A stretch of 32,000 nucleotides of DNA from Candidatus Brocadia sp. (lineage in GTDB: Bacteria; Planctomycetota; Brocadiia; Brocadiales; Brocadiaceae): positions 1,500,001 to 1,532,000 of the forward strand of contig CP091279.1 of the NCBI GenBank assembly GCA_021650915.1, written 5' to 3'. Both the position numbers and the translations under genes were made by a program. Positions within the stretch are counted from its first letter, which is position 1, and each line of letters opens with the position of its first letter. This document shows positions 4,717 to 27,849 of this stretch, piece by piece. The notes beneath the pieces were generated by a model, which saw only the letters and a list, made by a program, of their open reading frames with translations, was not told where the DNA came from and made no database searches.

Positions 4717-4732
4717 GAATAGAGTTCAATGA

Positions 4733-4755: not shown

Positions 4756-4773
4756 GCAAACCGCATAGATAAA

Positions 4774-6932: not shown

Positions 6933-6946
6933 AATGGATTACAGAA

Positions 6947-7225: not shown

Positions 7226-7283
7226 CGCTATAATCAAGAAGTACGAGACGCTGGATGTTAAATTAGGAAAAGATTTTTATTAT

Positions 7284-7544
7284 TTGAAAATAAGGGCTGA
7301 TATTAAAAATAACACAGAGCTATATTTAAGAGAGTATATGCGTATTGGAGATGAAAAATATTCCTATCACTGGCAGGAAAAGGAAGGAAAATTAATTACC
7401 AGATGGGATAACGCGCCACACCAAAAGGTAAAAACGTTTCCCCATCATAAGCATCTTTCAGATGGAACCGTGGTTGAATCATACGAGATTACGCTGGAAA
7501 AAGTATTAAAAAGCATTGAAACGAAGCTCGGAGTAAAACAATGA
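7284..7544 (+). CDS. DUF6516 / TumE-family toxin-like protein; N-terminus uncertain
   Basis: YSYHWQEKEGKLITRWDNAPHQKVKTFPHHKHL matches the remembered family signature Y.YHWQ...G.L..RWDNAPHH....FPHH.H. The frame is open back to 7221 (..IIKKYETLDVKLGKDFYYLKIRADI) with no ATG or GTG, so the TTG at 7284 is the only conventional start. ATGA overlap with the nqrF-like start. Confidence 0.7.
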   Translation: MKIRADIKNNTELYLREYMRIGDEKYSYHWQEKEGKLITRWDNAPHQKVKTFPHHKHLSDGTVVESYEITLEKVLKSIETKLGVKQ

Positions 7545-9169
7545 CCATATCCCTCTTCCTTGGTGCGGGCATTCTGGCCTTATTGGTATTGCTGCTGAGC
7601 ATCTTCAGCGAGGTTATTTATCAATTTTTCGGACGCGGTGAAAAACGTAAGCTCACCATCGTAAGCGATGATGAATACAAAAAGGAACTCGATATCGAAG
7701 GCGGTGAAAAACTGCTTTCACTCCTTCAGAACCGGGGCTTTAACATTCCTGCCGCCTGCGGCGGTATGGCGACCTGCGGCCAATGCAAGGTAAAACTCCG
7801 CACCGATGTCGGTACGTATAACGCGGTAGAAATCCCGCATTTTGACCTGCGTACAAGAGAGGCATCGAGAAAATTCTTAGAGGAGGGGGCGGGCGATGGA
7901 TATATACGGCTGGCATGCCAGGTCCGGGTTGACAAGGATGTAAGCCTGTATCTGCCAAAGGACACATTACACGTCAGAAAATACACCGCCCGGGTAATTA
8001 AGAAACGGGCGATTACCAGCGATAAAATGGAGATGTGGCTACAGCCATCAAGGCCGATTCAGTACAAACCAGGCCAATACATCCAGCTGGCAATCCCGGA
8101 AGATTTTGTGGAAGAGCATTATAAAAAATACGGGAATTTCATTAAAGAGGCATGTAAGACTCTGGGAAAAGAATTTATTCCCTATGTGCCCGGGACAACG
8201 TTGTACCGGGGCTACTCACTTGCATCCACGGAACCAGACATCCTGAAGCTCATCGTTCGCATGGCCCCTGCTCATCCGAGCATGTCAATAGAAAAAGGTG
8301 GACCTCCCTGCATAGGGCCTGCTTGTGTGCATACCTACCTTTTAGAAAGGAGTCTGTGGAATTTTTTCCGCGGTGAAAAGATACGTTTTACGGGACCGTA
8401 TGGCCATTTTACGCTGAAAGAAGAACCGCATACCGCGGTCTTTGTTGCCGGTGGCGCAGGCTTAGCGCCTATTTTAGCCCTTCTGGAACAATGGTTCCAG
8501 GAAGGCCGGCAGGATACAGCCATCTTTTTCCTGGGGGAAAGGCGATTCCAGGATATTCCCATGGTCTATTTGCCCAAGTGGCTGACCTGGCAGCAAAAAA
8601 ATCCTCAGTTTAAACTTGTGCCGGTACTTTCCGGCGCATTTCGCGGCGACAACCCCGCTGAATTGAATGATCTTGACAAGAACTGTCTTTCTTCGCTTTC
8701 CGTGGAGGCCAAACGCCTCGTGAAAGAACAGGGGTTTGTGGATGAGCAGGAAAATCATTGGAAGGGCGAAGTCGGTTTTATTGGACCCCTCCTGAGAAAG
8801 TATCTCTCGGCGGATCAGAATATTGTATTTTACCTCTGCGGGCCGTCACCCATGACCGTCACCGTCATCGATTCAGCAGCGAACCAGTTGAATCTGAAAA
8901 AAGAAGATGCCCTCTTTGACGATTTTACCGGCACGCTCACCCCTTCAGTCGATCTGATCTATCAAAAGCTTGAAATTAAAGAACTGCTGTATCGTGCATC
9001 TCTACCCAACGCCGATAAGCTCATTGAAAAGATTGGCCAAATCCTCATTATTCAACTGATACTCAAAGACAAGATCGAAGAAGGCTACCGCTTCCTTGAC
9101 CAGGTAAGGGAATCCCTGGGAAAGTCTGCACAGGAACTTGAATTGATGCTCTCCGCCTATAAGAGTTGA
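7541..9169 (+). CDS. nqrF: NqrF-like subunit (TM anchor, 2Fe-2S ferredoxin, FAD/NAD(P)H reductase) with a C-terminal extension
   Basis: N-terminal TM ISLFLGAGILALLVLLLSIF. CGGMATCGQCKV...LACQV (plant-type 2Fe-2S), YRGYSLAS (RxYS FAD motif), VFVAGGAGLAPILALL and YLCGPSPM (NAD-binding). 542 aa against roughly 400 aa that I recall for typical NqrF. Confidence 0.9.
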   Translation: MTISLFLGAGILALLVLLLSIFSEVIYQFFGRGEKRKLTIVSDDEYKKELDIEGGEKLLSLLQNRGFNIPAACGGMATCGQCKVKLRTDVGTYNAVEIPHFDLRTREASRKFLEEGAGDGYIRLACQVRVDKDVSLYLPKDTLHVRKYTARVIKKRAITSDKMEMWLQPSRPIQYKPGQYIQLAIPEDFVEEHYKKYGNFIKEACKTLGKEFIPYVPGTTLYRGYSLASTEPDILKLIVRMAPAHPSMSIEKGGPPCIGPACVHTYLLERSLWNFFRGEKIRFTGPYGHFTLKEEPHTAVFVAGGAGLAPILALLEQWFQEGRQDTAIFFLGERRFQDIPMVYLPKWLTWQQKNPQFKLVPVLSGAFRGDNPAELNDLDKNCLSSLSVEAKRLVKEQGFVDEQENHWKGEVGFIGPLLRKYLSADQNIVFYLCGPSPMTVTVIDSAANQLNLKKEDALFDDFTGTLTPSVDLIYQKLEIKELLYRASLPNADKLIEKIGQILIIQLILKDKIEEGYRFLDQVRESLGKSAQELELMLSAYKS

Positions 9170-9257
9170 TGTTAGGAGCAAACAGTTCCGATCATGCCCA
9201 ACCAGGAGCATCTTGCCTTGCTCATGCAAGGCAAGGGATACATGGAATGCCTGGTGA

Positions 9258-9440
9258 AAAGCGAATCCAGACACTGTTTCCATCCTCCGTAGTGTCCGAT
9301 TGGAAGGCCGCGATCTCTGCGGCTACGGCCTGCATGACGCCTACCTGCAATGCGCCCATCTTAGGAATGCAATCCTTGTTAATACCGACCTTCAAAACGC
9401 AACGCCCAATGGTGCTCAGGTCTTTGAGATTTCTGCCTGA
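9258..9440 (+). pseudogene. Pentapeptide-repeat protein remnant
   Basis: Hand translation of the frame from 9294 gives VRLEG RDLCG YGLHD AYLQC AHLRN AILVN TDLQN ATPNG AQVFE ISA*. That is 7-8 consecutive A(D/N)LXX-type pentads with the central Leu in register. An in-frame TGA at 9255-9257 lies upstream. There is no ATG or GTG and no SD; the only start is TTG at 9300. Confidence 0.5.
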
Positions 9441-9498
9441 GAAGTGAGGTTTCGAACCAACGGATGCTGTTTCGCTGGTCAGCCGCTGGTATATCACT

Positions 9499-12400
9499 AT
9501 GATAAAACCTATTGATAATGAATCGAGAGAAATTGCAGTATCCGAACGGGAGAGAAATATCGTTGTTATTGCCGGGGCCGGAACGGGGAAGACGACCCTC
9601 CTGGTAAATCGGGTGCTGCATGTGCTTCTGGGTCACAAACGGCTGCAGAAAGAAGAAAGCCCCATCCTCAGAATCGTAGCCATGACCTTTACGGAAAAAG
9701 CCGCCAGTGATATGAAGGTAAGGCTGATGGGCGAGTTGGAAAAGATTGTTGCCGTTATCAAGGGAAATGCCTCGCCAGAAGAACAGATAAAGAGAGAGAA
9801 ATTTCTCGCGCATATCCGCGATACATACCATACGACCCTTGCAGAGATTGAACGCCGCGCAAAAAAGTCTCTGGAGGATATGGACAAGGCACTGATCGGG
9901 ACGATTCACAGTTTTGCCGCCCATCTGTTGCGTCTCTATCCCCTCGAATCGGGCGTAGTGCCAGGATTTATCGTGGATGAAGGCGATGTATTTGAGGAAA
10001 TGTTTGACAAAGAATGGAGCAGATGGATTGCAGGCGAACTTACGCTGGATTCTTCCCGCGCGCACCTCTGGAAGGACGTATTGCGGCGATTAGACCTTGA
10101 ATGCATGAAGGAACTGGCAAAGAAGCTGTCTGCGTTTACCATTCCCCCGGATTCCCTTACGTCACCGGCAAACGATGCATCCATCGTCCAACCCCTGATC
10201 GATTTTCTTGCCCATAGAATTACGAAGATCGTGGCTTCCTGCGGGAAGCAGAAAAACAATCTTGTCCTGCAATTGAATGAGTTATCAAACATTTTCGATG
10301 GTATCAGGAAGCACGGTATTGACTACGTGAATACCCTGACATACGACCTTGACAAAGACCCCTCTAAGGCAAAAAAAGATTGGACGGAGGAAGGGTTTGC
10401 GGCAGCACAAAGACTCGTAAAGGAAAGTCATGGGATGTTAAAGAAACTCAGGGCCGTTGATCATGCCTTTCTTACCGCAGCGACAGACCTCATCCTGCCG
10501 TTTGCGAAGACCTTTCGGCAAACGTATCTGTCGCAGGGCTATGTCTCGTTTGACGGGCTTCTTACCCTTACCAGGGATTTATTGCAAAAGAAAGAGTGTC
10601 GCCACGTTCGTGAAAAGCTAAAGGACGATTTTCGGGTAATCCTTGTCGATGAGTTCCAGGATACCGACCCCGTCCAGTATGAAATCGTCCTCTTTCTTTC
10701 TGAGTCGCTGGAATACTACAGCACGGATGCACGGAAGGTTATCCTTGAGGAAGGCAAACTTTTCATCGTGGGCGATCCCAAGCAGTCTATTTATGCCTTT
10801 CGCAGGGCGGATATTGAGGCGTATGAATATGTGGTGAAGCAGGTGTGCGGACAGGATGAGCCATTGAAATTGCAGGAAAATTTCAGAAGTCATTCCGGTA
10901 TCATCGAGGTGGTAAATCAGCTCTTTGACGGAAGAATCATGGTGGAGCAGCCGGGCTTACAACCACGCTATATCCCGATCCATGCACAGAGACAAAAGAG
11001 ACACTCCTCTCAGAAAGTTGAGCTTGTGCTGGTTTCTGATATAGAAGGAAACGAACTGAGTGCAAATGAGGCCAGAGAGGCAGAGGCAGAGTGGATTGCA
11101 CGCTGGATTGCAAACCACGTGAACCGGGAAACCATGGAAGATCCCCTGGCTGCAAACGGGGTTCGTACGCTTGTTTTCCGGGACGTTGCCCTGCTGTTGC
11201 GCGCATTTACTCAGGTGAGGCCGTATGTTGAGGCGTTCAAACGATACGGCATCCCGTACATCGTGGAAGGGGAAAAATACTTCTATACCACCCAGGAAAT
11301 CCTCGATTTTATCAATCTTCTGCGCGTCATCGGAAATCCTCACGATCTGGTTGCGCTGGTGGGCGTACTACGCTCACCTCTCGCAGGCTTAACCGATCGT
11401 GAAATCTATGAACTTCGGGTACATCATTCACTGGATTACCGCAAAGGCGTCTTGGAAAAAATCCCTGAAGATTACGGAATAAAAGATACGGATTGTCATC
11501 CTCTTCAAACTCACAAGCAAGAAAAGGAAAAGCCAAATCTATCTGCTGAAGCAAAGGAAATCGCAGAATCTTTCTATGCTTTTTTACGAGAAATCCATGC
11601 CCGTGCCGGCATCATTCCCGTCTCTCAGCTAATCGCAGAGATCCTGGACAGCGCCCATATTGCCGAGATTACCGCAAGCGCCTGGCATGGCGAACAGAAG
11701 CTGGCCAACCTCTGGAAGCTCCATCGGATGGCTTGCGATATGGAAGAGTCGGCAGGTATTTCACTGCAAACCTTCGTTGGCCGTATCAAGACGCACATCA
11801 GGGAGGGGCGGGAAGAAGGTGAGAGCCCGCTTTCGGATGAGACGCTGGATGTCGTGAAAATCCTTACCATCCATAAGTCGAAGGGGCTGGAATTTCCCGT
11901 TATTATCCTCGGCAATCTGCACGGTGAAGTACGAAATGACCACGAGGTTTTGGACGGAGCGGTATTTGATTGGTCTACGTCTACAACCGGCATTGTGGTT
12001 GGACGGGGGAATCAACAGGTAAGGAATCTGCAAAGCATGGTGATCGAAAAGAAACTGAATGACCGGTCGTGGGAAGAAGAGAAACGCGTCCTGTATGTGG
12101 CCATGACCAGGGCCAGGGAACGGTTGATCCTTACGGGATCAGAAAAGGGAGATGATAAATCGTATATGGGAATGATCACCCAATCGGTGAAGGATGCCAC
12201 AGGCATGGAGCCTGGCAATGAAGATAAAACAGCAGATAAGGAAAAATCCCCCCTCCCCTTGCAGGAAAAGGCTGGGGTAATGGGCGTTTCTCAAGGAAAA
12301 TTCCCTTTAGGAAACGCAGAGATCTTTGTTGAGCATTTCAGATTTGATGGAATACGTCATCCACAAAAGGCAGTTAAGGAAAAGTTTTTGAATGCCGACT

Positions 12401-13299
12401 GGACGGCCTTTGTTGAAACATGGAAGAAGAGAGAAGCAGAAATGGCTGAGGCGCTGAAGAGGCCGCTCTTTGTCTCTCCAACGACAATAGCTGACGAAGA
12501 AGCAATGGAAAAAGACGGACCCATAGCACAGAGGAGCACCAGGAAAATTTCTCATTTTCAGCCTGGTACGTCCGAACAACCTCGACCGGAAAATTATCCG
12601 CTATCTCCTCCCAACGGCGGAGGGGATAGCGGAACGGTTATGGCAAAGAAAATTCAACCTGATACTGGGCAACCGTATCCAGGGCAATCAGCGGTAATCG
12701 GTTCCCTTTGCCACCGGGTACTGGAGGGATGGGATTTTCGCGGAGATTCCCAGAAACTGCAAAGCTCCGTCGAATCAGCCGTAGCATGGGCCATTGCCGT
12801 TCAGAAAAATGAGCTAAGGTCGCCTGATCAACCTTTCGGGCAAGACCTTCACTATCAAAAGGAAGGGGCTATGTCTTCTGAAGGCGAGGAAAGAGGGAAG
12901 ATTCCAGGGTTTCATAAAACGTCCTCTGGAGCGACGGTATTTCAGGATGCGGAATTGATAAAAGCAGAGGTAATAAAAATCTTGTCAGCCTTTCTTGCCT
13001 CAGAGACATACCGGGAGTTGCAGGCCGCACAAATCCTTGGACGTGAGATACCCATCCTGCTTCATTGGGATGGGCAGGTTATGAGGGGTACTATTGATAT
13101 CCTTTACAAGATGGGCGACCGTGTCATCATTGCTGATTATAAGACAGATCGCGTCACCATGACTGATCTGACTGCAAGGGCAGAAAAATACCGCTATCAG
13201 AAAGAAGTCTACGCGGAAGCCGTCAAACGCTGTCTAAAAGTAGACAATCCTGAGTTTAAAGTTATCTTCCTGAGAATTGGCATGGCGGTGTCGGTTTGA
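9499..13299 (+). CDS. UvrD/AddA-type superfamily-1 helicase fused to a PD-(D/E)XK (RecB-type) nuclease
   Basis: AGAGTGKTT (Walker A), VDEFQDTDPVQ (motif II), VGDPKQSIYAFRRAD (III), ENFRSHSGI (IV), IHKSKGLEFPVIIL (V), LYVAMTRARERLILTG (VI). C-terminal nuclease motif GTIDILYKMGDRVIIADYKTD plus YRYQKEVYAEAV. Confidence 0.9.
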   Translation: MIKPIDNESREIAVSERERNIVVIAGAGTGKTTLLVNRVLHVLLGHKRLQKEESPILRIVAMTFTEKAASDMKVRLMGELEKIVAVIKGNASPEEQIKREKFLAHIRDTYHTTLAEIERRAKKSLEDMDKALIGTIHSFAAHLLRLYPLESGVVPGFIVDEGDVFEEMFDKEWSRWIAGELTLDSSRAHLWKDVLRRLDLECMKELAKKLSAFTIPPDSLTSPANDASIVQPLIDFLAHRITKIVASCGKQKNNLVLQLNELSNIFDGIRKHGIDYVNTLTYDLDKDPSKAKKDWTEEGFAAAQRLVKESHGMLKKLRAVDHAFLTAATDLILPFAKTFRQTYLSQGYVSFDGLLTLTRDLLQKKECRHVREKLKDDFRVILVDEFQDTDPVQYEIVLFLSESLEYYSTDARKVILEEGKLFIVGDPKQSIYAFRRADIEAYEYVVKQVCGQDEPLKLQENFRSHSGIIEVVNQLFDGRIMVEQPGLQPRYIPIHAQRQKRHSSQKVELVLVSDIEGNELSANEAREAEAEWIARWIANHVNRETMEDPLAANGVRTLVFRDVALLLRAFTQVRPYVEAFKRYGIPYIVEGEKYFYTTQEILDFINLLRVIGNPHDLVALVGVLRSPLAGLTDREIYELRVHHSLDYRKGVLEKIPEDYGIKDTDCHPLQTHKQEKEKPNLSAEAKEIAESFYAFLREIHARAGIIPVSQLIAEILDSAHIAEITASAWHGEQKLANLWKLHRMACDMEESAGISLQTFVGRIKTHIREGREEGESPLSDETLDVVKILTIHKSKGLEFPVIILGNLHGEVRNDHEVLDGAVFDWSTSTTGIVVGRGNQQVRNLQSMVIEKKLNDRSWEEEKRVLYVAMTRARERLILTGSEKGDDKSYMGMITQSVKDATGMEPGNEDKTADKEKSPLPLQEKAGVMGVSQGKFPLGNAEIFVEHFRFDGIRHPQKAVKEKFLNADWTAFVETWKKREAEMAEALKRPLFVSPTTIADEEAMEKDGPIAQRSTRKISHFQPGTSEQPRPENYPLSPPNGGGDSGTVMAKKIQPDTGQPYPGQSAVIGSLCHRVLEGWDFRGDSQKLQSSVESAVAWAIAVQKNELRSPDQPFGQDLHYQKEGAMSSEGEERGKIPGFHKTSSGATVFQDAELIKAEVIKILSAFLASETYRELQAAQILGREIPILLHWDGQVMRGTIDILYKMGDRVIIADYKTDRVTMTDLTARAEKYRYQKEVYAEAVKRCLKVDNPEFKVIFLRIGMAVSV

Positions 13300-13388: not shown

Positions 13389-15905
13389 TCATTTTGTTGC
13401 GGTCTCTTCCAGTTTCTTTAAGCGCCGCAATTTCACCGCCTCGTCCTGGATACGGGTCAGGTTCCCCATCGTTTTGGCGGTGCCCCACCACCAGCTGATG
13501 TCCTGCTGGGCATGGGCGGTGCCTTTGTACCCCTGCAAATGGTTCCAGAACCACATCTCGACATACTCCTGTTCTACGCCGCTGGGATTCCCATCGTTTT
13601 GGCCAAATATGGCGTAGGCGCCCAGTACCGGCCCGATAACCGGGAGGTGGCCACTGGTCTTTTTGAAAAGGCTATACACTTCAGGACCCAATTCCTTCGG
13701 GCTCAACAGTTGAACAATTAAATCGCTTAAGGGAAACGGCGACCTTTGTTCCGGAGAGGGTGTAATCATATCTTTTGCAAAGAGCTCTTCTACCATGAGC
13801 TGCGCGTCATCGATGCGCCTCCATGATTCAAACATGTACTGATCCAGGGAATCAAGCCACATGCTGGCAAACCGGTTGCTATGGCATTTGGTGCACATTT
13901 CCACCCAAGAGCGGCGTTTTGCCTTGCTTTCCGGGGAATAGATTTCCAGTTTCTTGTCCATGGGCGGTATCGTTATTCCGTAGGGGAAATCTTTGATTCC
14001 CGATTTGAATTCAACTTCCTTCGGCGGAATAACGCCCATCCGCCATATCCCTTTCGTCTCGACATTCATCTCCCAGCGGCCATCCCCAACATACATGTGG
14101 CAGTACTGGCATGTTGGAGCAGGATAATCAACCCCGGGAATGACCTCAGAGAGTTTCTTGTCCCAATTCCATTTCTCCCCGGAGATTTGATAAATAATCC
14201 CCCACCGGGAATGTTGATAGCTTTCCCAATCCGGGTGGTCTGGTCCCATATGGCATCCGGAACACACCTCCGGGCGGCGGGCTTCGGCCACGGAAAAGAG
14301 ATGTTTGCCGTGACAGTCGTCACACGATGACATATTCTGGTGGCATTGGTCGCATCCGATCATCGAATACCGTTCACCGCGCCGGTAGTTTTCCACATAC
14401 CAGGGAACGGATACCGTAGCCTCCCAATTCTGGGGATGACTGGGTCTGCCATGATCTCTCCCCTTTGCGAATTCTTTCGCCTGCTGAGGATGGCACACTC
14501 CACAGGCATTATCAACGGTAGGCATGAATAATTTTTCATGATTATCCCCATGACAGTAGGAACAGTATACCCCATTCATTGTCCCCGGCTCCCAGTTGTT
14601 GAGCTCTTTGCCAATTAATTCCTCAATCTCCTGGGTCTCTGCTGATACTTCCCGGTTTTTTTTCGGATTGGCATGATTTGAGATCTTCCACTGAGCCACA
14701 ATTCCCGGCGTGGACTCTTCGTGACATTCGACACACTGCTCTGGCCGATATTTGCTCAGGAGTTCTTTATAAGTCACACTATCAGGCGGGATATAATGTC
14801 TCGCTGGATTAAAGTACATATAAAACGGTATCGGTTTATAAAATTCTCCCCACGGACCATCACCTTGCGCCAGACCAACAAAATCCTCATACATTTTCTT
14901 GAGGGATGCATCGGGGTATTCATATGAGCCTGGGGGTGCATTAAGGGTTGGAGCGCTCTTTACGTCAGAAGACATCCTGGGGTTCTCTTCTTTTTTTTCC
15001 ACAACAAAAATGCCAAACATACCATTCACCATGTGGTCATGAAAGTGGCAGTGGAACGCCCAATTTCCCGGCCCAACCCCTTCCCCTGCGGTAAAGTCAG
15101 CAATATGCGACGTAAACGGAGCCAATGAAACGTTGTCAATCAACGCTCCGCTTGCCTTGTCGACCCACCGGTGTCCGTGCGTATGAAAGGTATGCATCTC
15201 CTCAGAGGTATTAACCACATGAAACCGCACCTTTTCCCCTGCGGTTACCCTCCATACCAATCCGGGGAATGCGGAACGGTCACCGTTCATAAACTCAATA
15301 TCACCGGATTTATCATTAAACGCTTCATACTCAACGCCATTCACCCTGTATGAGTGCATGAAGACAACAAATTCCTTATCAGGAGGGCTTGGGTCGCCTT
15401 CTTTTGGCTCAATAATCAATGCGCCCCAGAGTCCGCGGGAAAGACCTTCATCTCCGCCCATCTCCAGGGCATGGGTGTGATAAAACCATGTGCCAGGCGT
15501 GCCGATGGTATCCCATACATACGTCATCGATTGTCCGGGTTCAACCGTGCTGGTAGGATTGCCTGCTATATGAGCGCCATCATTCGCAGCGGTATATTTC
15601 ACTCCATGAGGATGAAGCGAGGCGGGAACGGACAGCTTATTGGTAAAGTATACCCGTACCTTTGTCCCTTCCCGTACTTTTATGGTAGGCCCAGGCACCG
15701 TGGGATTTTCGCCTTTTCTGCAATACCCCCAGGCATCAAAAAATACGCCTGGTCTCAGCTCCAGCGCAACCGGACGCGCTTCCATTTCCAGGTGAACAAC
15801 GCCATCTCTTTCTGACAAACAGGGGATTTCGGCATCCACCCTGCATACCTGTAAGAAAAAGCTTGCCATGATTACCATGCCAAATGCTACCCGCTTGGCA
15901 ACCAT
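13389..15905 (-). CDS. Exported fusion: two-domain multicopper oxidase (NirK-related cupredoxin pair) plus octaheme hydroxylamine-oxidoreductase-like cytochrome c; putative encapsulin cargo
   Basis: Signal peptide MVAKRVAFGMVIMASFFLQVCRVDA. Cu motifs HPHG, YHTH, HTFHTHGH and HCHFHDHMVNGM. Eight CxxCH motifs follow: CVECH, CSYCH, CGVCH, CDQCH, CDDCH, CSGCH, CQYCH, CTKCH. The start lies 3 nt after the encapsulin stop, with GGAG 7 nt upstream. Confidence 0.95.
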   Translation of the reverse strand: MVAKRVAFGMVIMASFFLQVCRVDAEIPCLSERDGVVHLEMEARPVALELRPGVFFDAWGYCRKGENPTVPGPTIKVREGTKVRVYFTNKLSVPASLHPHGVKYTAANDGAHIAGNPTSTVEPGQSMTYVWDTIGTPGTWFYHTHALEMGGDEGLSRGLWGALIIEPKEGDPSPPDKEFVVFMHSYRVNGVEYEAFNDKSGDIEFMNGDRSAFPGLVWRVTAGEKVRFHVVNTSEEMHTFHTHGHRWVDKASGALIDNVSLAPFTSHIADFTAGEGVGPGNWAFHCHFHDHMVNGMFGIFVVEKKEENPRMSSDVKSAPTLNAPPGSYEYPDASLKKMYEDFVGLAQGDGPWGEFYKPIPFYMYFNPARHYIPPDSVTYKELLSKYRPEQCVECHEESTPGIVAQWKISNHANPKKNREVSAETQEIEELIGKELNNWEPGTMNGVYCSYCHGDNHEKLFMPTVDNACGVCHPQQAKEFAKGRDHGRPSHPQNWEATVSVPWYVENYRRGERYSMIGCDQCHQNMSSCDDCHGKHLFSVAEARRPEVCSGCHMGPDHPDWESYQHSRWGIIYQISGEKWNWDKKLSEVIPGVDYPAPTCQYCHMYVGDGRWEMNVETKGIWRMGVIPPKEVEFKSGIKDFPYGITIPPMDKKLEIYSPESKAKRRSWVEMCTKCHSNRFASMWLDSLDQYMFESWRRIDDAQLMVEELFAKDMITPSPEQRSPFPLSDLIVQLLSPKELGPEVYSLFKKTSGHLPVIGPVLGAYAIFGQNDGNPSGVEQEYVEMWFWNHLQGYKGTAHAQQDISWWWGTAKTMGNLTRIQDEAVKLRRLKKLEETATK

Positions 15906-15908: not shown

Positions 15909-17027
15909 TTACTCCAGAGTACAAATCGCTTGCGGGCATTTAATCCTGAGCACCGAACTGCCAACGACCCGGAACCGATGATTCAGGTTTTCCGGACCGC
16001 AGTACTCGACCTTAAAATTCCCCCCCACCGCCAAATCCGCATTTTGCCTGCCGGCTGCCATAACAAGGGCAACGTCTTTTTTCAGCACGGGGCTCTGGTA
16101 CACACCACCCTTCACCATCTCTTTTACCGCATCGATCTCTAACTTTCCCGTGCGTTCATACACCTTATGGAGCAATGCATAAAGCCGCGGACTCACCACA
16201 AGGGTATACGGCGGGAAAAATCCGGTATTCCTTAACTTCTCAACCGCAGCCACCACGTCCTGAAACCCGTTGCCAATGGCCGACCAGTCGCTAAGCTTCA
16301 TGATATTGCGTCCATTCACATTCAATAGTCCCGCCATGTTCATGTCCGGCAACCCGTTAAACACCAGGTCGTCTTCACGGGCGGCAGTGGCCACAGCTGC
16401 TCCGATTGCGGCGCTGGTATCGAGGGGAATTTCACCCTTCTTGCTCGCTTCGAGATCTCTCCAGAAGAGCCAGAAATCTTTGTAAATGACCGGTATATGC
16501 GCAACATCCCGCTTGAGTGAATGAATGGCATTGTCAGCCTCTCCAAGCATATCGACCGTCGCCCACGACGGAAGTCCAAACGTATCGATGGACACACACT
16601 GGCTTCCCACACCGAGGGGGCCATACGTTTCCAGAAACTTTCTGCCTACAAGACATTTTTCAATTGTTTCATGGACATGCCGCTGTAACTTTTCCCAGTC
16701 TTCGCGTCCCATTTCTCTTTCAGAAGAACCGCCTTTACCACCGCCCCCTTTTTCTTCCCCACAGGAACCCTTGCCACTACAGGAATCATTGGATGATGCC
16801 GCCAGATTTTTGGGGACCGCATGACAAGCAAGACAGCCCTGATTCAGATACTGACAATCTTTATGGACATTCCTCAATTCCTGGGAAGAATGACATGAAA
16901 AACAATCGTTTTCCTTCGTGCATTTTGCGTAAACAGGAGAAGCATTTTGCGGCAGGTAGAAAAGGGCAGATAGAGTAAAAATCCCGATAAACTGATATTT
17001 TTTGCAAAAATTCTTATAAATCTTCAT
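15909..17027 (-). CDS. Signal peptide + diheme cytochrome c + family-1 encapsulin shell protein fusion
   Basis: [34 protein letters not shown], then CFSCH and CLACH, then a Gly/Ser linker ([18 protein letters not shown]). The remaining ~270 aa align by eye to the remembered T. maritima encapsulin ([47 protein letters not shown]...FKVEY). Start set at ATG 17027 (GAGGAGG 8 nt upstream) rather than the track start at 17051. Confidence 0.9.
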   Translation of the reverse strand: [372 protein letters not shown]

Positions 17028-17181
17028 AAATATTGCCTCCTCATGGTTCAAATAATGTCTCAGAAATCGAATACCACTCCCCTTGTATTCTGCACTTCAC
17101 CTCGCTTTCTCCTCATCAGGCAGCAATAATTCTTAGATCTTTATGTTCATCAGATAACATCTTTTTTTTCATTATTCCAGC

Positions 17182-17267: not shown

Positions 17268-17789
17268 TCATCTTGATGGCATACTTGCGTCCTTTTTAGG
17301 CGGCTCAGAGCCTTGCAAACAACTGCGCAGATCCTCTTCAATATGTTGCGGATCCGTGTAGCCTTCCTCTCTGTGTTCGAGCTCCCCATCTTTATAATAG
17401 CAGATCAGGGGAATTTTCTTTACCTGGTAAACATAACTCATTTCCTCTTTGTCCCTTGCCATGAGAACCGGAAAGGTAATTCCTTTTTTTTCAATAAACT
17501 GCTGCACCGCTTTCGGCTTATCATCAAGCGAGACGCCTATGATTTCCACGTTCTTGTTCTTGTATTTTTCGTAAAGGGTGCTGAGTTCCGGGAGATGCTC
17601 CACACAGATACTGCACCACGTTGCCCAGAACGTTACCGCCACGATTTTATCCTTATTTGACCGGATAACCTCTTTCAAATCCGTAGACGTAACCACCTCC
17701 ACATCCCTTGCAAAGCCGACTCCTGGTAAAGACAGCATCGCAAACAACGTTAACAATAATGCCCTTCTGAATTGACCTACCATAGACAT
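17268..17789 (-). CDS. Exported TlpA/ResA-like thioredoxin-fold thiol:disulfide oxidoreductase
   Basis: Signal peptide MSMVGQFRRALLLTLFAMLSLPGVGFA. Active site FWATWCSICVEHLPEL (WCxxC), followed by IIGVSLDD. Strong SD AAAGGAGGGGGGGAG upstream. Confidence 0.85.
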   Translation of the reverse strand: MSMVGQFRRALLLTLFAMLSLPGVGFARDVEVVTSTDLKEVIRSNKDKIVAVTFWATWCSICVEHLPELSTLYEKYKNKNVEIIGVSLDDKPKAVQQFIEKKGITFPVLMARDKEEMSYVYQVKKIPLICYYKDGELEHREEGYTDPQHIEEDLRSCLQGSEPPKKDASMPSR

Positions 17790-17829
17790 AACTCCCCCCC
17801 TCCTTTATTTTTTATCAGATCATTGTGCA

Positions 17830-19470
17830 TTATGGGCTGAAGGAACATCCTGCGCCCCTGCCATACTTGAAACTCTTTTCTTCTCCCCGCATGAACCTTT
17901 TCATCATACCCGGGGACCCATCAAAGACTAAACTATTCTGAGGCTTATCCGAAACAACCAACCACTCGGCGCCCGGAAAAACCGTTGCGAGTTTTTCTCT
18001 TTCCTTTGTGTCTTTCATAAAAAGAACGGTTGCTGCAACTCCCGCCTCTTCCGCAGTGGGCGCTCCCACTATCACGGCAAGATTTTCATTCGCTGACGGC
18101 CTTCCCGTTCTCGGATCCACGAGGTGCATCGAAAATTTATCCTGTATCGCAGGATACTTCGAATAATCGCCAAGGAATGCCACCCCTTGATTCACCAGAT
18201 GGAGAGCGCCTACGATAGTATCTTCCCTAACGGGGTGAGGAATCCCCACCTTCCACGCATCTTTCCCGGAAGGGGCATTAAACATACGACTCATGCTTCC
18301 ATAGTTCATGCAGACATTCGTGACCCCGGAATTACGAAATATCTCCAATGCCTTGTCTATTGCATATCCCTTTATTACCGGCCCCAGGTCGATTTGTGTC
18401 TTTTTATGAGCGAAAGAAATTGTCCTATCATCGTCAAGCGCCTTTATATTTTTATAAGAGACCGCGGGAATGATGGCCTCAAGTTTATCTGCTTTTACCT
18501 CTTTTGGTTTACCCCGGTATATTCCCCACTGCTCCAATAGCGGAGCAACCGTTACATCAAACCCCCCTTCCGTAATCACCCCATAGTGATAACACCGTTT
18601 CATTACCGCGAATACCTCTTCGTTGCAGGCAAAGGCGGTCTTCGCCGCAACCTTATTCATCGTCTGTAATTCCTTCCTGAAAAGCCATTCAATGCGCTCT
18701 ATCTCATTGAATGCCTTCGTTGCCAGCGAAAAGAACTGCCGTTCGCTGTCAGCTTCCGCAGCAATGACGGCTTTCACTCCCTCGATAACCCTTGCCGTGG
18801 TGAAGAGTTGCCGGTGCGTTATTCTCGCAGCCCTGACTTCATCAGGGGACATGCGATGAGCCAGGGATGCAGAGTCGGGATTTTTATTGATGTAAAATTC
18901 ATGAATAAACGCAAGCATCTTTTTCACGCCACGGCAAACTGCCTGCACCGAAGTCGTAGCGCCCGTAATCTTAATAATGTCCTTATTCGTCGAAAAGGGG
19001 TCTTTCAGGGACTTGCCTTCGAACTGCTTCAGAAATCTCTTCCGGCTGACCTCCTGTCCGCGGCTTTCTCTATAGATCATCACCGCAACATCAAGAACCT
19101 TTCCCTCAGTATTGGCGCTGAGAATCCATGTAATTGGATGAAAACAGCCCATTTCCTCGGTAATAATGGCATACCGGTCTGTCACCGGACCCTTTTTGCC
19201 TATAAAGACCTCAAAGGTTGATTCAATATCCGGTCTTTTCAAGAATCTCTTGAAATATTCCAGCCCTTCAGGGGTAAGGGTAAGAACCTCAGATTCGATC
19301 TGATCGCACCCATCAAACACCTTTGCAATGGCCTCATCTTCCTCCATGAAGACCTGAAGCTGGTAGTTTTCCGGGGGCTCCCCTTCTTCAAGGAAGGACT
19401 GCCCCGAAGACAATCTCGAAAAAAGAAGAATGCTCCACAGTAAGAGCAGAGAAAACAGATACCTTTTCAT
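17830..19470 (-). CDS. apbE: Exported FMN-binding domain fused to an ApbE-type flavin transferase
   Basis: Start reset to MKRYLFSLLLLWSILLFSRLSSG (ATG 19470). FMN_bind-like FLKQFEGKSL...IKITGATTSVQAV. ApbE landmarks GGFDVTVAPLLEQWG, QIDLGPVIKGYAIDKAL and HLVDPRTGRP. The 56 upstream codons of the track ORF cover the promoter-like repeat and carry no signal peptide. Confidence 0.85.
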   Translation of the reverse strand: MKRYLFSLLLLWSILLFSRLSSGQSFLEEGEPPENYQLQVFMEEDEAIAKVFDGCDQIESEVLTLTPEGLEYFKRFLKRPDIESTFEVFIGKKGPVTDRYAIITEEMGCFHPITWILSANTEGKVLDVAVMIYRESRGQEVSRKRFLKQFEGKSLKDPFSTNKDIIKITGATTSVQAVCRGVKKMLAFIHEFYINKNPDSASLAHRMSPDEVRAARITHRQLFTTARVIEGVKAVIAAEADSERQFFSLATKAFNEIERIEWLFRKELQTMNKVAAKTAFACNEEVFAVMKRCYHYGVITEGGFDVTVAPLLEQWGIYRGKPKEVKADKLEAIIPAVSYKNIKALDDDRTISFAHKKTQIDLGPVIKGYAIDKALEIFRNSGVTNVCMNYGSMSRMFNAPSGKDAWKVGIPHPVREDTIVGALHLVNQGVAFLGDYSKYPAIQDKFSMHLVDPRTGRPSANENLAVIVGAPTAEEAGVAATVLFMKDTKEREKLATVFPGAEWLVVSDKPQNSLVFDGSPGMMKRFMRGEEKSFKYGRGAGCSFSP

Positions 19471-19486
19471 AGTCACAGCTTTTAAA

Positions 19487-19540
19487 AACTCCTCAGATTT
19501 TATAAGAGATAGAATGTCGTTAAGCCAGGAGATGCCTCTT
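19487..19540 (-). repeat. Promoter-like repeat, copy A (upstream of apbE fusion)
   Basis: 33 of 39 core positions are identical to 23494-23549 by hand alignment. The minus strand reads CTGGCT, 17 nt, TTATAA, then GAGGAG. Confidence 0.5.
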
Positions 19541-19561
19541 GTACAGAATCTGCGATGCTCT

Positions 19562-19717
19562 TTAGAAAAGACAGAAAATAAGCGATAAAGAGAGCAATGA
19601 CGTCCCTCTTTGAGCCGCAACAGATATAGCAAAAACATCCCTTCGTCTTTGCCTCTCCGGCGACATTGTAAACTTTCCTTCTGCCGGTTTTTTTACCATT
19701 TGTATAATCTTCTCCAT
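19562..19717 (-). CDS. Small 51-aa ORF below the track cutoff, unknown function
   Basis: Hand translation gives MEKIIQMVKKPAEGKFTMSPERQRRRDVFAISVAAQRGTSLLSLSLIFCLF*. It is preceded by GAGAGGAGG with a 7-nt spacer. It lies between the ATPase stop and the apbE promoter-like repeat. No homology recognised. Confidence 0.3.
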   Translation of the reverse strand: MEKIIQMVKKPAEGKFTMSPERQRRRDVFAISVAAQRGTSLLSLSLIFCLF

Positions 19718-19812
19718 ATCTTTTCCTCCTCTCAAAATCTTTGCGTTATATGCTCTGGGCTAAAAACAATACGCATCAAAGTTGAAATGCTGCGGAATTT
19801 CCTGTCTCTATT

Positions 19813-21909
19813 TCAGGCCATTATCCTCTCTTCCCCTGCAAGGGGAATGCGATATGGCTTCAGTGAATTTGCGGATACGAGAATTGTTGTTGCATTATGT
19901 ATGAGGGCTGATGTTACCGGAGTTATCATCCCCAAGATACCGAGGCCTATTAAGGCACTGTTAATTCCAATTATATATCTGAAATTCTGTTTAATGCGGA
20001 ACATGGCATCCTGGGCAATCCACCGGGCATCAACAATGCCTTCAAGCCCCTTGTCCAGGAGCAAGATATCGCAGGCTTCTCTTGCGATATCTGCACCATG
20101 TTTCATAGATATGCCCACATCTGCGCAAGAGAGAGCAGGGGAGTCATTAATACCGTCACCAACCATTGCAACTACATAACCTTTGCTTTTTAAATCTTTA
20201 ATTATTCCGGCCTTTCTTTCCGGAAGAGCCTGGGCGTAAAATTCCTCTATCCCAAGTCTTTGCGCTACATTACGCGCCGTAGCATAGTTGTCGCCAGTAA
20301 GCATGATGGTTCGATTCACGCCAGAATCCTTCAGCATCTTGAGAAATATTTGCAAATCATCCCTTACCCGATCTTCAATGGCTATAACACCGGCAAGATT
20401 GTTTTCCACAGCCACGTAAAGCACCGAATAGCCCCTGTCCATAAAATCTTTTATCACAGACTCCTTACCTTCCACGTCAATCCCATTGTCGTCAGAGATA
20501 AAGTGCTTACTCCCTACCAGCATTCTTTTCCCTTCAATCCTTGACACAATGCCATGGGCAAGAACATACTCAATCTCTGCATGGTTCTCTTCATGAACCA
20601 GCCCTTCATCTTCTGCCTTTTTAACCACGGCAGTTGCCACCGGATGTGGAAAATGTTCTTCCACACATGCAACGTTTTTTAACAACTCTTCCCGATTAAA
20701 ACCGTCGAAGGTAAGAATATCAAAAACCTTTGGCTGCGCCTCTGTAAGCGTTCCTGTCTTGTCAAAAACAAAGACGTTTGCCTCCGCCAGTTTTTCCATA
20801 AACTTACCACCTTTTACGAAAATATTTTGTCTTGCTGCGGCTATCATTGCGGACATAATCATGAGTGGAGTTGATAATTTCAAGGCACATGAATAATCTA
20901 CCAGCAAGATTGAGGTGGCCTTTATCGAACTGCCGGTAAAAAGATAGATTAGTCCGCTTAGGATAAAACTATAGGGCACAATCCTATTTGCGAGCATTTC
21001 TGCATGGTTCTGCACATCCGCCTTTAGGCCTTCCGATCCTTCAATTACTTTGATTATTTTGGAGACCCTTGTTTTATCACCTACTTTGATTGATTTTATT
21101 GTTAAGAGGCCTTCTTCCAGGACCGTGCCAGCATAAACCATTAATCCCGCCCGTTTAGGCACAGAAAATGGCTCACCCGTGATTGAAGACTGATTGACCA
21201 GCGCCGCACCATCAGCTACAATACCATCCACAGGAATGCTGGAACCCGTTCTTACCACCACAAGATCGCCCACCACTACTTCCTTTATATTGATCTGCAT
21301 TTCACAGCCGTTCCGTCTTACCCACGCCCACCCATTCTGATTCAGGAACATCTTTGAAATGCTTTCCCTTGATTTTTGACGTATCCGTTCCTCGAGGTAA
21401 TCGCCAACCTTCAGAAAAAATGTAATGAAACCCACCGTGAGATAATCACTTCTCAGCAATGAAATACCTACCGCCGTGGAGTCGAGGACATCAACGTTCA
21501 GACGTTTGTTCAGGATTGCGCTAAAGCCTTTTTTCAGGACAGGCATAGCGCCATAGAGAGAGAGGAATGGCGCCATTGCCACGGGTATCATTGATCGCGC
21601 AATCAAGAGCGCCCCCGATAGCATTGCAGCCTTCTTTTTCTGTTTAAGTTTATCTTGTTTAAACGTTTCTTTTTTTACAAAAATCAATGACGTCTCATGC
21701 AGTATCTTTAATAAGACCACTTTCACAGCGCCGTCGCCGTTGTATATGACCAGGATATTCCTGGTTCGGCGATTAAAGGATACCTTCTGAACCCCATCGA
21801 CAGCCAAAAACAATCTTTCAAGCTGGGAATTCTCCGGGGTATGCCTTTTCGGTAAGGCGAGACTAATCCTTATCCTTTGAGGGAGATCGTGAACAATGTC
21901 ATACTTCAT
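19813..21909 (-). CDS. P1B-type heavy-metal ATPase with a non-canonical transmembrane metal motif (YSCA in place of CPC)
   Basis: ITGEP (A-domain), FDKTGTLT (phosphorylation site), FPHPVA (HP motif), MLTGDN and MVGDGINDSPAL. The TM motif VDYSCALKLSTPL aligns to CPCALGLATP. The last TM reads IHNATTILVSANSLK instead of MxxSS. The N-terminal HMA-like fold has no CxxC (LPQRIRISL...GVQKVSFNRRTRNILVIY). Confidence 0.95.
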   Translation of the reverse strand: MKYDIVHDLPQRIRISLALPKRHTPENSQLERLFLAVDGVQKVSFNRRTRNILVIYNGDGAVKVVLLKILHETSLIFVKKETFKQDKLKQKKKAAMLSGALLIARSMIPVAMAPFLSLYGAMPVLKKGFSAILNKRLNVDVLDSTAVGISLLRSDYLTVGFITFFLKVGDYLEERIRQKSRESISKMFLNQNGWAWVRRNGCEMQINIKEVVVGDLVVVRTGSSIPVDGIVADGAALVNQSSITGEPFSVPKRAGLMVYAGTVLEEGLLTIKSIKVGDKTRVSKIIKVIEGSEGLKADVQNHAEMLANRIVPYSFILSGLIYLFTGSSIKATSILLVDYSCALKLSTPLMIMSAMIAAARQNIFVKGGKFMEKLAEANVFVFDKTGTLTEAQPKVFDILTFDGFNREELLKNVACVEEHFPHPVATAVVKKAEDEGLVHEENHAEIEYVLAHGIVSRIEGKRMLVGSKHFISDDNGIDVEGKESVIKDFMDRGYSVLYVAVENNLAGVIAIEDRVRDDLQIFLKMLKDSGVNRTIMLTGDNYATARNVAQRLGIEEFYAQALPERKAGIIKDLKSKGYVVAMVGDGINDSPALSCADVGISMKHGADIAREACDILLLDKGLEGIVDARWIAQDAMFRIKQNFRYIIGINSALIGLGILGMITPVTSALIHNATTILVSANSLKPYRIPLAGEERIMA

Positions 21910-22094: not shown

Positions 22095-22096
22095 CG

Positions 22097-22498: not shown

Positions 22499-22588
22499 AA
22501 GTACCTCCTTTTGTATCCCAAGTAAACCTATAATACGACAAACACCTCATCACATCGTATCAGATTAAACGTACAACATCAGGAAGAA

Positions 22589-26656: not shown

Positions 26657-27775
26657 TTAATGCCCCGATCCCGTTGCCTCCGGACTGTAAATGTTATGAG
26701 GCCACTTTTTTGATTTATTTACGTGCAGATATCCTTCAGCGCCTTTGACCACCCGAAAAAGGGCATGATCGACCAGCGGATACTGTCCGGGCACCAATGC
26801 CTCAAATTCAAATATAGCGGCTGATCCCGGTGGAATGTACGCCGTCTCCTCGTTCCTTATAACACTCCGGTAGTGACCCGGATAAAATTTATCGAAGATT
26901 TGACCAATGATGTGGAAGTTGGAACCAATGTTCGGTCCGCCGTTAACAAAGAAAATGCGAACCATATCACCCTGATTTACCATCATGGTATTGCCGTGTA
27001 TTGATGGATCTGTAAGGGCTTTTGTATGTCCGTTAAAGGTAAAATAGTCGGGGCGCTCGGACAAAGCCTTCTCCTCATCAAGGGAATACCCGTCCATATC
27101 CGGATGGTGTTCAACGCCTGATTTTATATACCACTCCCCCTGCCCGACGTAGAATTCTTTAACCTCTCTTCCCTCCTTTTCGTCCGAGTTTTTGAGCGCC
27201 TTGTACGCGTTCTTAAGTCCTCCCTTTGGCTCCACCATAATCAGGCCGTACATACCGTAGGCTACATGTTCCCACGGCATTCCTTCACCAGCGCAGTGAT
27301 AAATATAAGCGCCAGTCCTCATTGCCTTGAATTGTAAGGTCTTGGTTTCTCCTGGCTCAACGTCTGTAACTGCGGCGCCACCGCCAGGACCAATAACCGC
27401 ATGGAGATCTATGTTGTGAGGTTCCACATTATTCGAATCGTTGGTCAGGTTGATCACTACGGTATCGCCCTCCATGACCCGTATCATAGGGCCTGGCACG
27501 GTGCATGGCCCGACAACATCCCCCTTTTTTTCCGCAAAACACCAAAACCAGAATTGCTTCCCGGGCGCTAATTCGGCAATAACCTCTTTAATAACCAAAT
27601 TTACGGTAACTGTCGTGGGGTTGCTCCGTGTAATAGGCGGTGGAATTTCAGCCGGGTTTTTTGCAACGGTATCAAGTATTTCAACGGCTGATACGCTCCT
27701 GACCGGAGCCACCGCTATTACGCCGGTCATCAATGCACCCGTTAACAATCCATACCATACTTTTATTCCTGTCAT
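26657..27775 (-). CDS. nirK: Copper-containing nitrite reductase NirK
   Basis: EPHNIDLHAV, YIYHCAGEGMPWEHVAYGMYG (T1/T2 Cu ligands) and NFHIIGQIFD. Signal or anchor MTGIKVWYGLLTGALMTGVIAVAPVRSVSA. Start reset to ATG 27775 (AAGGAGAGGG upstream); the track start at 27805 is a TTG. Confidence 0.95.
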   Translation of the reverse strand: MTGIKVWYGLLTGALMTGVIAVAPVRSVSAVEILDTVAKNPAEIPPPITRSNPTTVTVNLVIKEVIAELAPGKQFWFWCFAEKKGDVVGPCTVPGPMIRVMEGDTVVINLTNDSNNVEPHNIDLHAVIGPGGGAAVTDVEPGETKTLQFKAMRTGAYIYHCAGEGMPWEHVAYGMYGLIMVEPKGGLKNAYKALKNSDEKEGREVKEFYVGQGEWYIKSGVEHHPDMDGYSLDEEKALSERPDYFTFNGHTKALTDPSIHGNTMMVNQGDMVRIFFVNGGPNIGSNFHIIGQIFDKFYPGHYRSVIRNEETAYIPPGSAAIFEFEALVPGQYPLVDHALFRVVKGAEGYLHVNKSKKWPHNIYSPEATGSGH

Positions 27776-27849
27776 CACTTCCCTCTCCTTAAAAATAGAC
27801 TTCAATGAATTAGGCTGCCTTTGGCAGCGGCTTTTAATTTCCCCTCAGT

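Follow-up and report, generated by a model that had tools for sequence, protein, structure and literature searches.

The 32,000-nucleotide stretch of Candidatus Brocadia sp. analysed here (the window; assembly GCA_021650915.1, contig CP091279.1, positions 1,500,001 to 1,532,000) encodes on its minus strand an 838-residue fusion protein, a putative encapsulin cargo, in which a predicted two-domain multicopper oxidase (2dMCO; MCO, multicopper oxidase) is joined to an octahaem half related to HAO. Its parts, in window positions and in amino acid (aa) residues of the protein, are as follows.

13389..15905, minus strand: whole cargo gene, coding for the 838-aa fusion of a predicted two-domain multicopper oxidase with an HAO-like octahaem half; putative encapsulin cargo.
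15831..15905, minus strand: signal peptide, about aa 1-25 (MVAKRVAFGMVIMASFFLQVCRVDA), hydrophobic, as read from the sequence.
15396..15830, minus strand: cupredoxin domain 1, about aa 26-170, with H98, H100, H143 and H145 (trinuclear cluster) and Y104; no type 1 (T1) copper site.
14991..15395, minus strand: cupredoxin domain 2, about aa 171-305, with the T1 ligands H238, C286, H291 and axial M296 and the cluster ligands H241, H243, H285 and H287.
14916..14990, minus strand: interdomain linker, about aa 306-330; the segment equivalent to it in the comparison of orthologues is aa 303-321.
13392..14915, minus strand: HAO-like octahaem half, aa 331-838, with eight CxxCH motifs at aa 391, 448, 468, 518, 528, 548, 599 and 671.

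Pfam places Cu-oxidase_3 at aa 67-169, Cu-oxidase_2 at aa 207-305 and Multi-haem_cyto in the multihaem half. The protein is an exact match to KKO18402.1 (GCA_000987375.1, contig LAQJ01000273), whose public name is already that of an HAO-copper oxidase fusion. We take its host to be Ca. Brocadia fulgida; the sources say only Ca. Brocadia. The signal peptide has no twin-arginine motif and thus looks Sec-type; in the orthologue BpMHAO (BBO17176.1, bpit_14680, Ca. Brocadia pituitae), the subject of a preprint of 29 July 2026, SignalP 6 gives a signal peptide of 25 aa (bioRxiv 10.64898/2026.07.28.741245).

That the copper half is of the laccase type was known before, from the public annotation of this protein, from remarks in the earlier literature and from that experimental preprint. 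BpMHAO (our locus L019) is 84% identical to the window protein overall and 86% in the copper domain. It was typed as a type B 2dMCO with the ligands H98xH100, H143xH145, H238xxH241xH243 and H285C286H287xxxH291 (bioRxiv 10.64898/2026.07.28.741245). The two proteins share the ligand numbering, the eight haem motifs, a Trp replacing the cross-linking Tyr of HAO, and a gene neighbourhood that includes a gene for a dihaem encapsulin; they differ in species and in length (840 against 838 aa). The competing name "NIR-HAO" stems from work on encapsulins (Giessen and Silver, 10.1101/085266; Tracey et al. 2019, PMC6934571), although Tracey et al. noted that CD-search puts the Kuenenia domain among "NiR-like two-domain laccases" and raised a laccase function (PMC6934571). 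A literature search for "two-domain multicopper oxidase" together with anammox gave no match, and in PMC10732223 the word laccase occurs in the reference list only. What the present analysis adds is a ligand map across genera, with lineage-specific decay of the copper sites and variation of the linker.

The initial annotation had placed four copper motifs between about residues 30 and 320 of the protein. All four are found in the open reading frame (ORF) at 13389-15905 on the minus strand; the span that had been given for this half, 14945-15905, corresponds to aa 1-320, with the codon boundary at 14946. Type 2 and type 3 copper ligands are denoted T2 and T3.

15603..15614, minus strand: HPHG, aa 98-101; H98 is a T2 and H100 a T3 ligand; aligned on SLAC HVHG.
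15471..15482, minus strand: YHTH, aa 142-145; H143 and H145 are T3 ligands; aligned on SLAC YHDH.
15171..15194, minus strand: HTFHTHGH, aa 238-245; H238 is a T1, H241 a T2 and H243 a T3 ligand; aligned on SLAC HTFHMHGH.
15018..15053, minus strand: HCHFHDHMVNGM, aa 285-296; H285 is a T3, C286 a T1, H287 a T3 and H291 a T1 ligand, with M296 axial to T1; aligned on SLAC HCHVQSHSDMGM.

When the 325 N-terminal residues were shuffled 20,000 times, the four motifs never appeared together in this order. The copper segment matches about 50 solved two-domain (small) laccases with E-values from 2e-35 to 1e-32. In phmmer alignments to 8aip, 4n8u and 9ix9, its ligand motifs correspond residue for residue with HVHG, YHDH, HTFHxHGH and HCHVQSHSDMGM of the laccases. 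In the SLAC structures these aligned motifs supply T2/T3, T3/T3, T1/T2/T3 and T3/T1/T3/T1/axial-Met ligands, which is also the assignment made for BpMHAO. The 12 ligands are H238, C286, H291 and M296 for T1, and H98, H100, H143, H145, H241, H243, H285 and H287 for the trinuclear cluster. An alignment with 29 database sequences, 27 of them full-length free-standing relatives (about 305-370 aa) and one a fragment, shows the 12 ligand columns intact in 26 of the 27 full-length 2dMCOs, the exception being a C286W change; the window protein has all 12.

Fold and phylogeny agree with the alignment. An AlphaFold 2 (AF2) model of aa 26-320 has a mean predicted local distance difference test (pLDDT) score of 90.2 and a predicted template-modelling (pTM) score of 0.87, with pLDDT dropping to 62-68 at the C-terminal end, on the side of the linker. 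The top 50 Foldseek matches of this model in the PDB are all SLAC-type two-domain laccases (TM 0.71-0.81). In a neighbour-joining tree with NirK as outgroup, the anammox domains form one clade together with P0004, a stand-alone 317-aa relative that is 60% identical and has all ligands, and this clade lies beside the free-standing 2dMCOs, including the small laccases of the PDB. The only cysteines in aa 26-325 are C29, C62 and C286, and C286 alone lies within a ligand motif, so the T1 site is confined to domain 2, as in type B two-domain MCOs. T144 occupies the position in domain 1 where NirK and the type A and type C 2dMCOs carry a Cys. Y104, the equivalent of Tyr108 of SLAC, is retained in 20 of 22 sequences.

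The claim that a complete T1 and trinuclear set of the SLAC/2dMCO type is packed into two cupredoxin domains thus holds by alignment, fold and tree, since the HxH pairs sit on the positions of trinuclear ligands and the domain groups with the 2dMCOs rather than with NirK. As judged from sequence and fold, aa ~26-305 are very probably a SLAC-like two-domain multicopper oxidase of type B, with the copper chemistry that this implies. Like the small laccases of Streptomyces (PDB 3CG8, 3TAS, 4N8U, 8AIP), the domain has two cupredoxin folds, 12 ligands in the same order, a T1 site in domain 2, a Tyr four residues past the first HxH (Y104) and a closely similar predicted fold (the TM range given above). 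However, identity to them is only ~30-32% (32% according to the preprint), YHTH replaces YHDH, and the signal peptide is Sec-type instead of Tat-type (twin-arginine). In contrast to those enzymes, the cargo is fused to an octahaem protein, comes from an anaerobe and is encoded beside an encapsulin, and the spectra of its orthologue are atypical, with a laccase activity that is very low. The T1 loop (aa 288-292, window 15030-15044) carries an extra histidine, H289 (HCHFHDH), and M292 directly after the T1 His, both of which are missing from the small laccases (HCHVQSHSD). H289 is retained in most Brocadia-type orthologues, but not in Jettenia (HCHDNEH). These two residues might be related to the atypical purple spectrum of the orthologue.

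A genuine NirK encoded in the same window allows a direct comparison with the copper half.

26657..27805, minus strand: NirK, a TTG-started ORF in which the ATG at 27775, the end given in the initial annotation, is codon 11.

This protein matches the anammox-type NirK structure 5zl1 with E = 1e-153 and AniA (1kbv) with E = 2e-67. It has all nine characteristic residues: H130, C171, H180 and M185 at T1, H135, H170 and H347 at T2, and the catalytic D133 and H298, within the motifs HNIDLH (aa 130-135), YHCAGEGMPWEHVAYGM (aa 169-185) and FHIIG (aa 297-301). The NirK motifs quoted in the initial annotation are therefore all real, but the His of HIIG is catalytic and does not serve as a ligand; VDHALF supplies the third T2 ligand with its His (aa 347).

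The name "NIR-HAO" would make the cupredoxin half a NirK-type nitrite reductase, with T1 and T2 copper converting nitrite to nitric oxide (NO). Its appeal is understandable: the half consists of two cupredoxin domains and is expected to be trimeric, as in NirK, its domain 1 is 31% identical to the window NirK by BLASTP, and a KEGG-style mapping put orthologues under nirK (PMC4913261). The ligands tell otherwise. In the alignment, the T1 Cys of NirK is replaced by T144, the first T2 His (the second His of HNIDLH) by T105 and the catalytic Asp by K103, leaving no Cys in a ligand position of domain 1. The NirK Met (GMYG) faces a Leu (GLWG) in the BLASTP alignment, and the remaining T2 and catalytic positions are His in the cargo but belong to the trinuclear set. 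NirK carries its T1 site in domain 1, with a single T2 copper and an Asp/His catalytic pair, whereas in the cargo an additional five His, one Cys and one Met make up a T1 site in domain 2 and a trinuclear cluster. NirK (the window gene; PDB 5ZL1, 1KBV) likewise has two cupredoxin domains, is a trimer, as the cargo is expected to be, and carries its catalytic copper at a subunit interface; distant homology between the two is detectable in domain 1. The NirK equivalog profile TIGR02376 scores the cargo at 64.8 bits, against a cut-off of 296.3, over profile positions 26-179 (domain 1 only), and the window NirK at 275.6 bits, just below that cut-off, over positions 5-311. The fold matches, as noted above, are laccases throughout. 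The orthologue has meanwhile been put to the experiment: the copper domain of BpMHAO contains 2.9 Cu per protein, gives electron paramagnetic resonance (EPR) signals of T1, T2 and mixed-valence T3 copper, and showed no nitrite reductase activity with methyl viologen (bioRxiv 10.64898/2026.07.28.741245). The checks suggested in the initial annotation have thus in essence been carried out on the orthologue and came out as predicted there, except for a direct wiring of copper to haem. The copper domain is not a NirK, as the initial annotation had argued from the ligands; we give the nitrite reductase reading almost no credence, and it is already close to refuted.

The HAO-like half aligns end to end with Kustc0458 (6h5l, E = 4e-165) and matches Nitrosomonas HAO (NeHAO, 1fgj) with E = 3e-51. 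The Cys, Cys and His of its eight haem motifs are invariant in every orthologue that covers them. In the alignment with 1fgj, the Tyr of GWTYTEG faces W807 of SWWWG, in a stretch that is weak (4.6 bits); SWWWG is identical in 6h5l, which has no Tyr cross-link, and the preprint makes the same Trp assignment. Kustc0458, a nitrite-reducing HAO without the Tyr cross-link, is reductive (PMC8042395). With W807 at the site of the cross-linking Tyr of Nitrosomonas HAO, the half appears to be of the reductive type, closest to Kustc0458 (HAOr, PDB 6H5L), its nearest solved relative, which shares the C-terminal helix and SWWWG. Kustc0458, however, is free-standing and partnered by a separate dihaem cytochrome, Kustc0457, whereas the cargo HAO is fused to an MCO and the dihaem domain sits on the encapsulin. 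The C-terminus of the cargo (RIQDEAVKLRRLKKLEETATK) is an ordinary HAO C-terminal helix, common to free Kustc0458, and comparison with the latter reveals no canonical C-terminal encapsulin targeting peptide in it. Giessen and Silver did not find a targeting peptide either and instead showed that the cupredoxin half mediates co-purification with the shell (10.1101/085266).

The shell gene lies immediately upstream on the same strand, its stop 3 nt before the cargo start.

15909..17051, minus strand: family 1 encapsulin shell gene, with a signal peptide, an N-terminal dihaem cytochrome c domain (CFSCH, CLACH) and a Gly-rich linker; Pfam Linocin_M18.

The shell protein scores 238 bits on NCBIfam encap_f1 (cut-off 100); the public call of the gene has 372 aa, implying an ATG start at 17027. 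An encapsulin gene adjoins the cargo gene in 19 of 21 related loci, and the remaining two contigs end near the cargo gene. We considered whether the dihaem domain of the shell is a relative of Kustc0457, which would have pointed to an HAO-cytochrome contact in loading; a PDB search at E ≤10 returned only NrfH and c551 fragments and not chain B of 6H5L, there is no detectable similarity between the two, and the idea was dropped. The dihaem domain is absent (no CxxCH) from the shells of several lineages (loci L001, L008, L009, L010 and L011), including those of Kuenenia hertensis and Loosdrechtia. Its presence does not correlate strictly with ligand completeness, as L001, L008 and L009 are ligand-complete with a shell that lacks CxxCH. 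A Brocadiaceae metagenome-assembled genome (MAG; locus L007) has tandem encapsulin genes at 6829-7836 and 8575-9774, one with and one without the dihaem domain, followed by a cargo gene at 9778-12384 with the change C286S.

By analogy with the SLAC structures and with the published AlphaFold 3 (AF3) model, the eight ligands of the trinuclear cluster would meet only at the interface of neighbouring subunits in a homotrimer. From what is known of the family, T1 would take single electrons from a donor and pass them through the H285-C286-H287 bridge to the cluster, where O2 would be reduced. The small-laccase module would be tethered by a flexible linker to the reductive-type octahaem HAO-like module. 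In the AF3 trimer of BpMHAO, the MCO trimer is stacked on the HAO cone, with the cluster shared by domain 1 of a chain and domain 2 of its neighbour; the nearest Cu-haem pair, T2 to haem 2, is ~33 Å apart, and the linker has pLDDT <50 (bioRxiv 10.64898/2026.07.28.741245).

This model bears on a proposal of the initial annotation, that the fusion is a rigid trimer-on-trimer in which the T1 copper serves as a port for electrons entering or leaving the HAO haem chain. Homotrimers are formed in the families of both modules, the linker follows closely on the T1 ligands (aa 238-296), Kuenenia keeps T1 but not the trinuclear cluster, and the stacking itself matches the AF3 model of the orthologue. 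The wiring finds no such support. A separation of ~33 Å is too far for electron transfer, and the linker segment varies from 15 to 69 residues across orthologues, which speaks against a fixed geometry and a fixed T1-to-haem wire. The Scalindua-type and Loosdrechtia proteins, moreover, have no T1. We regard direct coupling of T1 copper to the haems as improbable.

To follow the copper sites across the anammox bacteria, one genome per species was scanned. A word-indexed protein search with the copper domain had returned only fragments of anammox orthologues (P0001-P0006), and the census was therefore built from genome loci: 25 in anammox genomes, of which 21 cover the copper domain. The full set of 12 ligands occurs in the Brocadia/Jettenia-type sequences and in two Brocadiia lineages that branch deeper, apart from the following exceptions among the 21 loci.

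One Brocadiaceae MAG (L007): C286S, which may be a substitution or an assembly error.
Kuenenia hertensis: H145L, H285Y and H287Q; 3 of 12 ligands lost, T1 intact.
Ca. Loosdrechtia aerotolerans: H287N and H291R; 2 of 12 ligands lost.
Three Scalindua-type genomes: 6-7 of 12 ligands lost, among them the His-Cys pair, removed by a two-residue deletion.

The deletion of the His-Cys pair makes a T1 copper impossible in the Scalindua type. Despite the ligand decay, the copper domain and all eight haem motifs are retained in Kuenenia, Loosdrechtia and the three Scalindua-type genomes. The ratio of MCO to HAO identity, each measured against the window protein, is 0.96-1.08 in the ligand-complete sequences, 0.92 in the MAG with C286S, 0.91 in Kuenenia, 0.83 in Loosdrechtia and 0.70-0.76 in the Scalindua type. 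The decayed lineages do not form one group in a tree of the HAO half, which indicates that ligands decayed at least twice and probably three times. Among the 12 ligand columns, 11 do not vary within the 17 Brocadia/Jettenia-type sequences, against 139 invariant columns of 276 overall (hypergeometric P = 0.003).

Part of this pattern had been seen before. The Kuenenia protein has His-to-Tyr and His-to-Gln ligand changes according to the preprint, which also states that Scalindua is without the fusion (bioRxiv 10.64898/2026.07.28.741245). Contrary to the latter statement, the fusion does occur in the Scalindua-type genomes, its copper half being decayed; one Scalindua-type fusion gene had been noticed earlier by Tracey et al. 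(PMC6934571). The K. stuttgartiensis cargo, Kuste2479 (CAJ73224.1, "NIR-HAO"), has the same two-module architecture and an adjoining gene for a dihaem encapsulin; it differs in that the trinuclear set of Kuenenia is incomplete, whereas the window protein has all 12 ligands. Gene order in the Scalindua-type loci is cargo, encapsulin, NirK, with NirK at 13961-14962 in L013, 13897-14907 in L017 and 13745-14779 in L021. These NirK proteins have all nine NirK residues, and the shell there is without CxxCH. Tracey et al. regarded the NirK annotation in the Scalindua type as provisional (PMC6934571).

The losses raise the possibility that the copper sites are a relic everywhere and that the domain is purely structural, serving as a platform for the trimer and as the point of contact through which the HAO half is loaded into the encapsulin. 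The domain is always kept while its ligands are lost in the lineages listed above. In K. stuttgartiensis, whose trinuclear set is incomplete according to the preprint, the cupredoxin half still co-purifies with the shell, at ~30 copies per 180-mer (10.1101/085266), and the cargo C-terminus, being that of free Kustc0458, offers no canonical targeting peptide. Yet in the Brocadia/Jettenia group, to which the window protein belongs, conservation is significantly higher in the ligand columns than elsewhere in the domain and the rate of evolution of the MCO half does not exceed that of the HAO half, and the orthologue binds copper in all three types of site and turns over O2 with Fe2+. A relic throughout is thus unlikely.

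The ligand pattern across genera, together with the co-purification of the Kuenenia protein with its shell, suggests instead a role in two layers. The first is a copper-independent function in all anammox lineages, as a trimer platform and a contact for encapsulin loading, for and against which we see about even odds. The second, put forward tentatively and with more doubt than confidence, is that in the Brocadia/Jettenia group, the window protein included, the domain may still be at work within the shell as an oxidase, clearing trace O2 or oxidising Fe2+.

What is known of the activity comes from BpMHAO. Its copper domain oxidises ABTS weakly, at 0.06 U/mg at pH 3, and carries out an O2-dependent oxidation of Fe2+, with 2 Fe per O2 and up to 40 Fe2+ per protein; in cell extracts the HAO half reduced NH2OH but not nitrite (bioRxiv 10.64898/2026.07.28.741245). 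The iron oxidation invites a more specific role, as the ferroxidase of an iron-mineralising encapsulin that would oxidise Fe2+ at T1, deposit iron oxide in the shell and explain the ~25-nm iron-rich particles of the anammoxosome. Iron storage with a ferroxidase cargo is common among encapsulins, and it has been proposed that those particles are encapsulins. The ferroxidase activity and the encapsulin context have appeared in separate publications and have not been brought together; the text of the preprint that reports the activity nowhere mentions encapsulin (bioRxiv 10.64898/2026.07.28.741245). The activity is, however, low, requires O2 and was deemed non-physiological by its authors, T1 is lost in Scalindua and Loosdrechtia, and the iron signal of the particles could stem from the ~8-10 haems per subunit pair. 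A dedicated ferroxidase seems rather improbable to us.

A related speculation, to which we give equally little weight, is that the Brocadia/Jettenia encapsulin is a redox nanoreactor. The laccase module would oxidise Fe2+ or another one-electron donor within the shell and deposit iron, the oxidant perhaps coming from trace O2 at the trinuclear cluster and also from the reduction of N-oxides or hydroxylamine at the HAO haem; Kuenenia, Loosdrechtia and Scalindua, with their decayed copper sites, would have given up this function and retained the domain merely for loading, as a scaffold. If true, this would explain the iron-rich particles of ~25 nm.

Several points count against the explanation favoured here, of a small-laccase module with a role in two layers. 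The host is an anaerobe, and O2 is perhaps not the natural acceptor. Several anammox genera can do without the trinuclear cluster, and Loosdrechtia aerotolerans, named for its aerotolerance, has lost H287 and H291, which weakens a role in protection from O2; the loss of copper sites in several genera and the low activities of the orthologue likewise weaken a role in O2 defence alone. All copper, EPR and activity data come from the B. pituitae orthologue. The orthologue domain holds 2.9 rather than 4 Cu, its purple spectrum is atypical, and its low laccase activity is measurable only at pH 3. In addition, two Fe are oxidised per O2, a ratio that suggests the formation of H2O2 instead of water.

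The cargo and shell genes stand at the end of a same-strand run of genes that includes NirK (26657-27805). The other members of interest are the following.

24313-26295, minus strand: three-domain MCO of 660 aa, with a signal peptide, HLHG at aa 177, WFHDH at aa 247, HPIHIH at aa 565 and HCHILEHEDNEMM at aa 628.
17268-23098, minus strand: conserved string, upstream of the encapsulin, of an HMA_2 protein, orf133, a P-type ATPase, an ApbE and FMN_bind fusion and a thioredoxin, found in loci L003, L005, L006, L012, L016 and L019.
19813-21909, minus strand: heavy-metal P-type ATPase (TIGR01525, 507 bits), with YSC at aa 339 and no CPC, SPC or CPH motif.
17830-19638, minus strand: ApbE/FMN_bind fusion.
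17268-17789, minus strand: ResA/TlpA-like thioredoxin.

The 660-aa MCO has only sub-threshold matches in NCBIfam (PhsA, 192 bits against 950; CueO, 97 against 525). We asked whether the fused copper domain is a local duplicate of it; the BLASTP similarity is not significant (E = 0.11), and a local duplication is therefore rejected. Going by the motifs, this anaerobe encodes two complete sets of copper ligands of the predicted O2-reducing kind within 11 kb. Synteny extends from HMA_2 to the cargo in the Brocadia loci; in Jettenia it is partial, and a homologue of ApbE was not detected there. The Kuenenia and Scalindua loci likewise contain ApbE and the thioredoxin. Because the shell (cEnc) and the cargo both have Sec-type signals, insertion of copper and haem must follow export. 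The neighbouring metal transporter and thiol-disulfide oxidoreductase may serve metal delivery to, and maturation of, the exported cargo and shell.

Three further features of the window were recorded. A 490-aa protein (29675-31147, minus strand) has a signal peptide, an N-terminal coiled coil and a β-barrel-like C-terminal part ending in ...ATYF, with no match in Pfam, NCBIfam or the PDB. Homologues of it with 46-51% identity occur at a distance of up to ~7 kb from the cargo in each of the three Scalindua-type loci (L013 3877-5298, L017 17767-19251, L021 3351-4787). An apparently unrelated membrane redox cluster of the Rnf/Nqr type (2582-9169, plus strand) comprises a Fer4 subunit, NQR2_RnfD_RnfE, FMN_bind and Rnf-Nqr, followed by a 542-aa Fer2/NAD_binding protein. 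A 1266-aa AddA-like protein, a UvrD-type helicase with a PD-(D/E)XK nuclease (9499-13299, plus strand), is convergent with the cargo gene, the two stops being 90 nt apart.

The "NIR-HAO" label underlies hypotheses about nitrite reduction and NO handling in the anammox encapsulin, and transcriptome work has counted the cargo as nirK (PMC4913261). With the copper half a laccase-type oxidase, these readings need correcting, and the correction is already available in the public annotation and, with spectroscopy, in the 2026 preprint. The interest that remains lies in the physiological role, in the link between ferroxidase activity and encapsulin, and in the lineage-specific decay of the copper sites. 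Why a complete copper cluster for O2 reduction should persist in an anaerobe, within a protein shell and on one chain with a reductive HAO, is puzzling. Mapped across the genera, the ligands, with a complete set in Brocadia, T1 only in Kuenenia and no copper site in Scalindua, amount to a natural experiment on this question.

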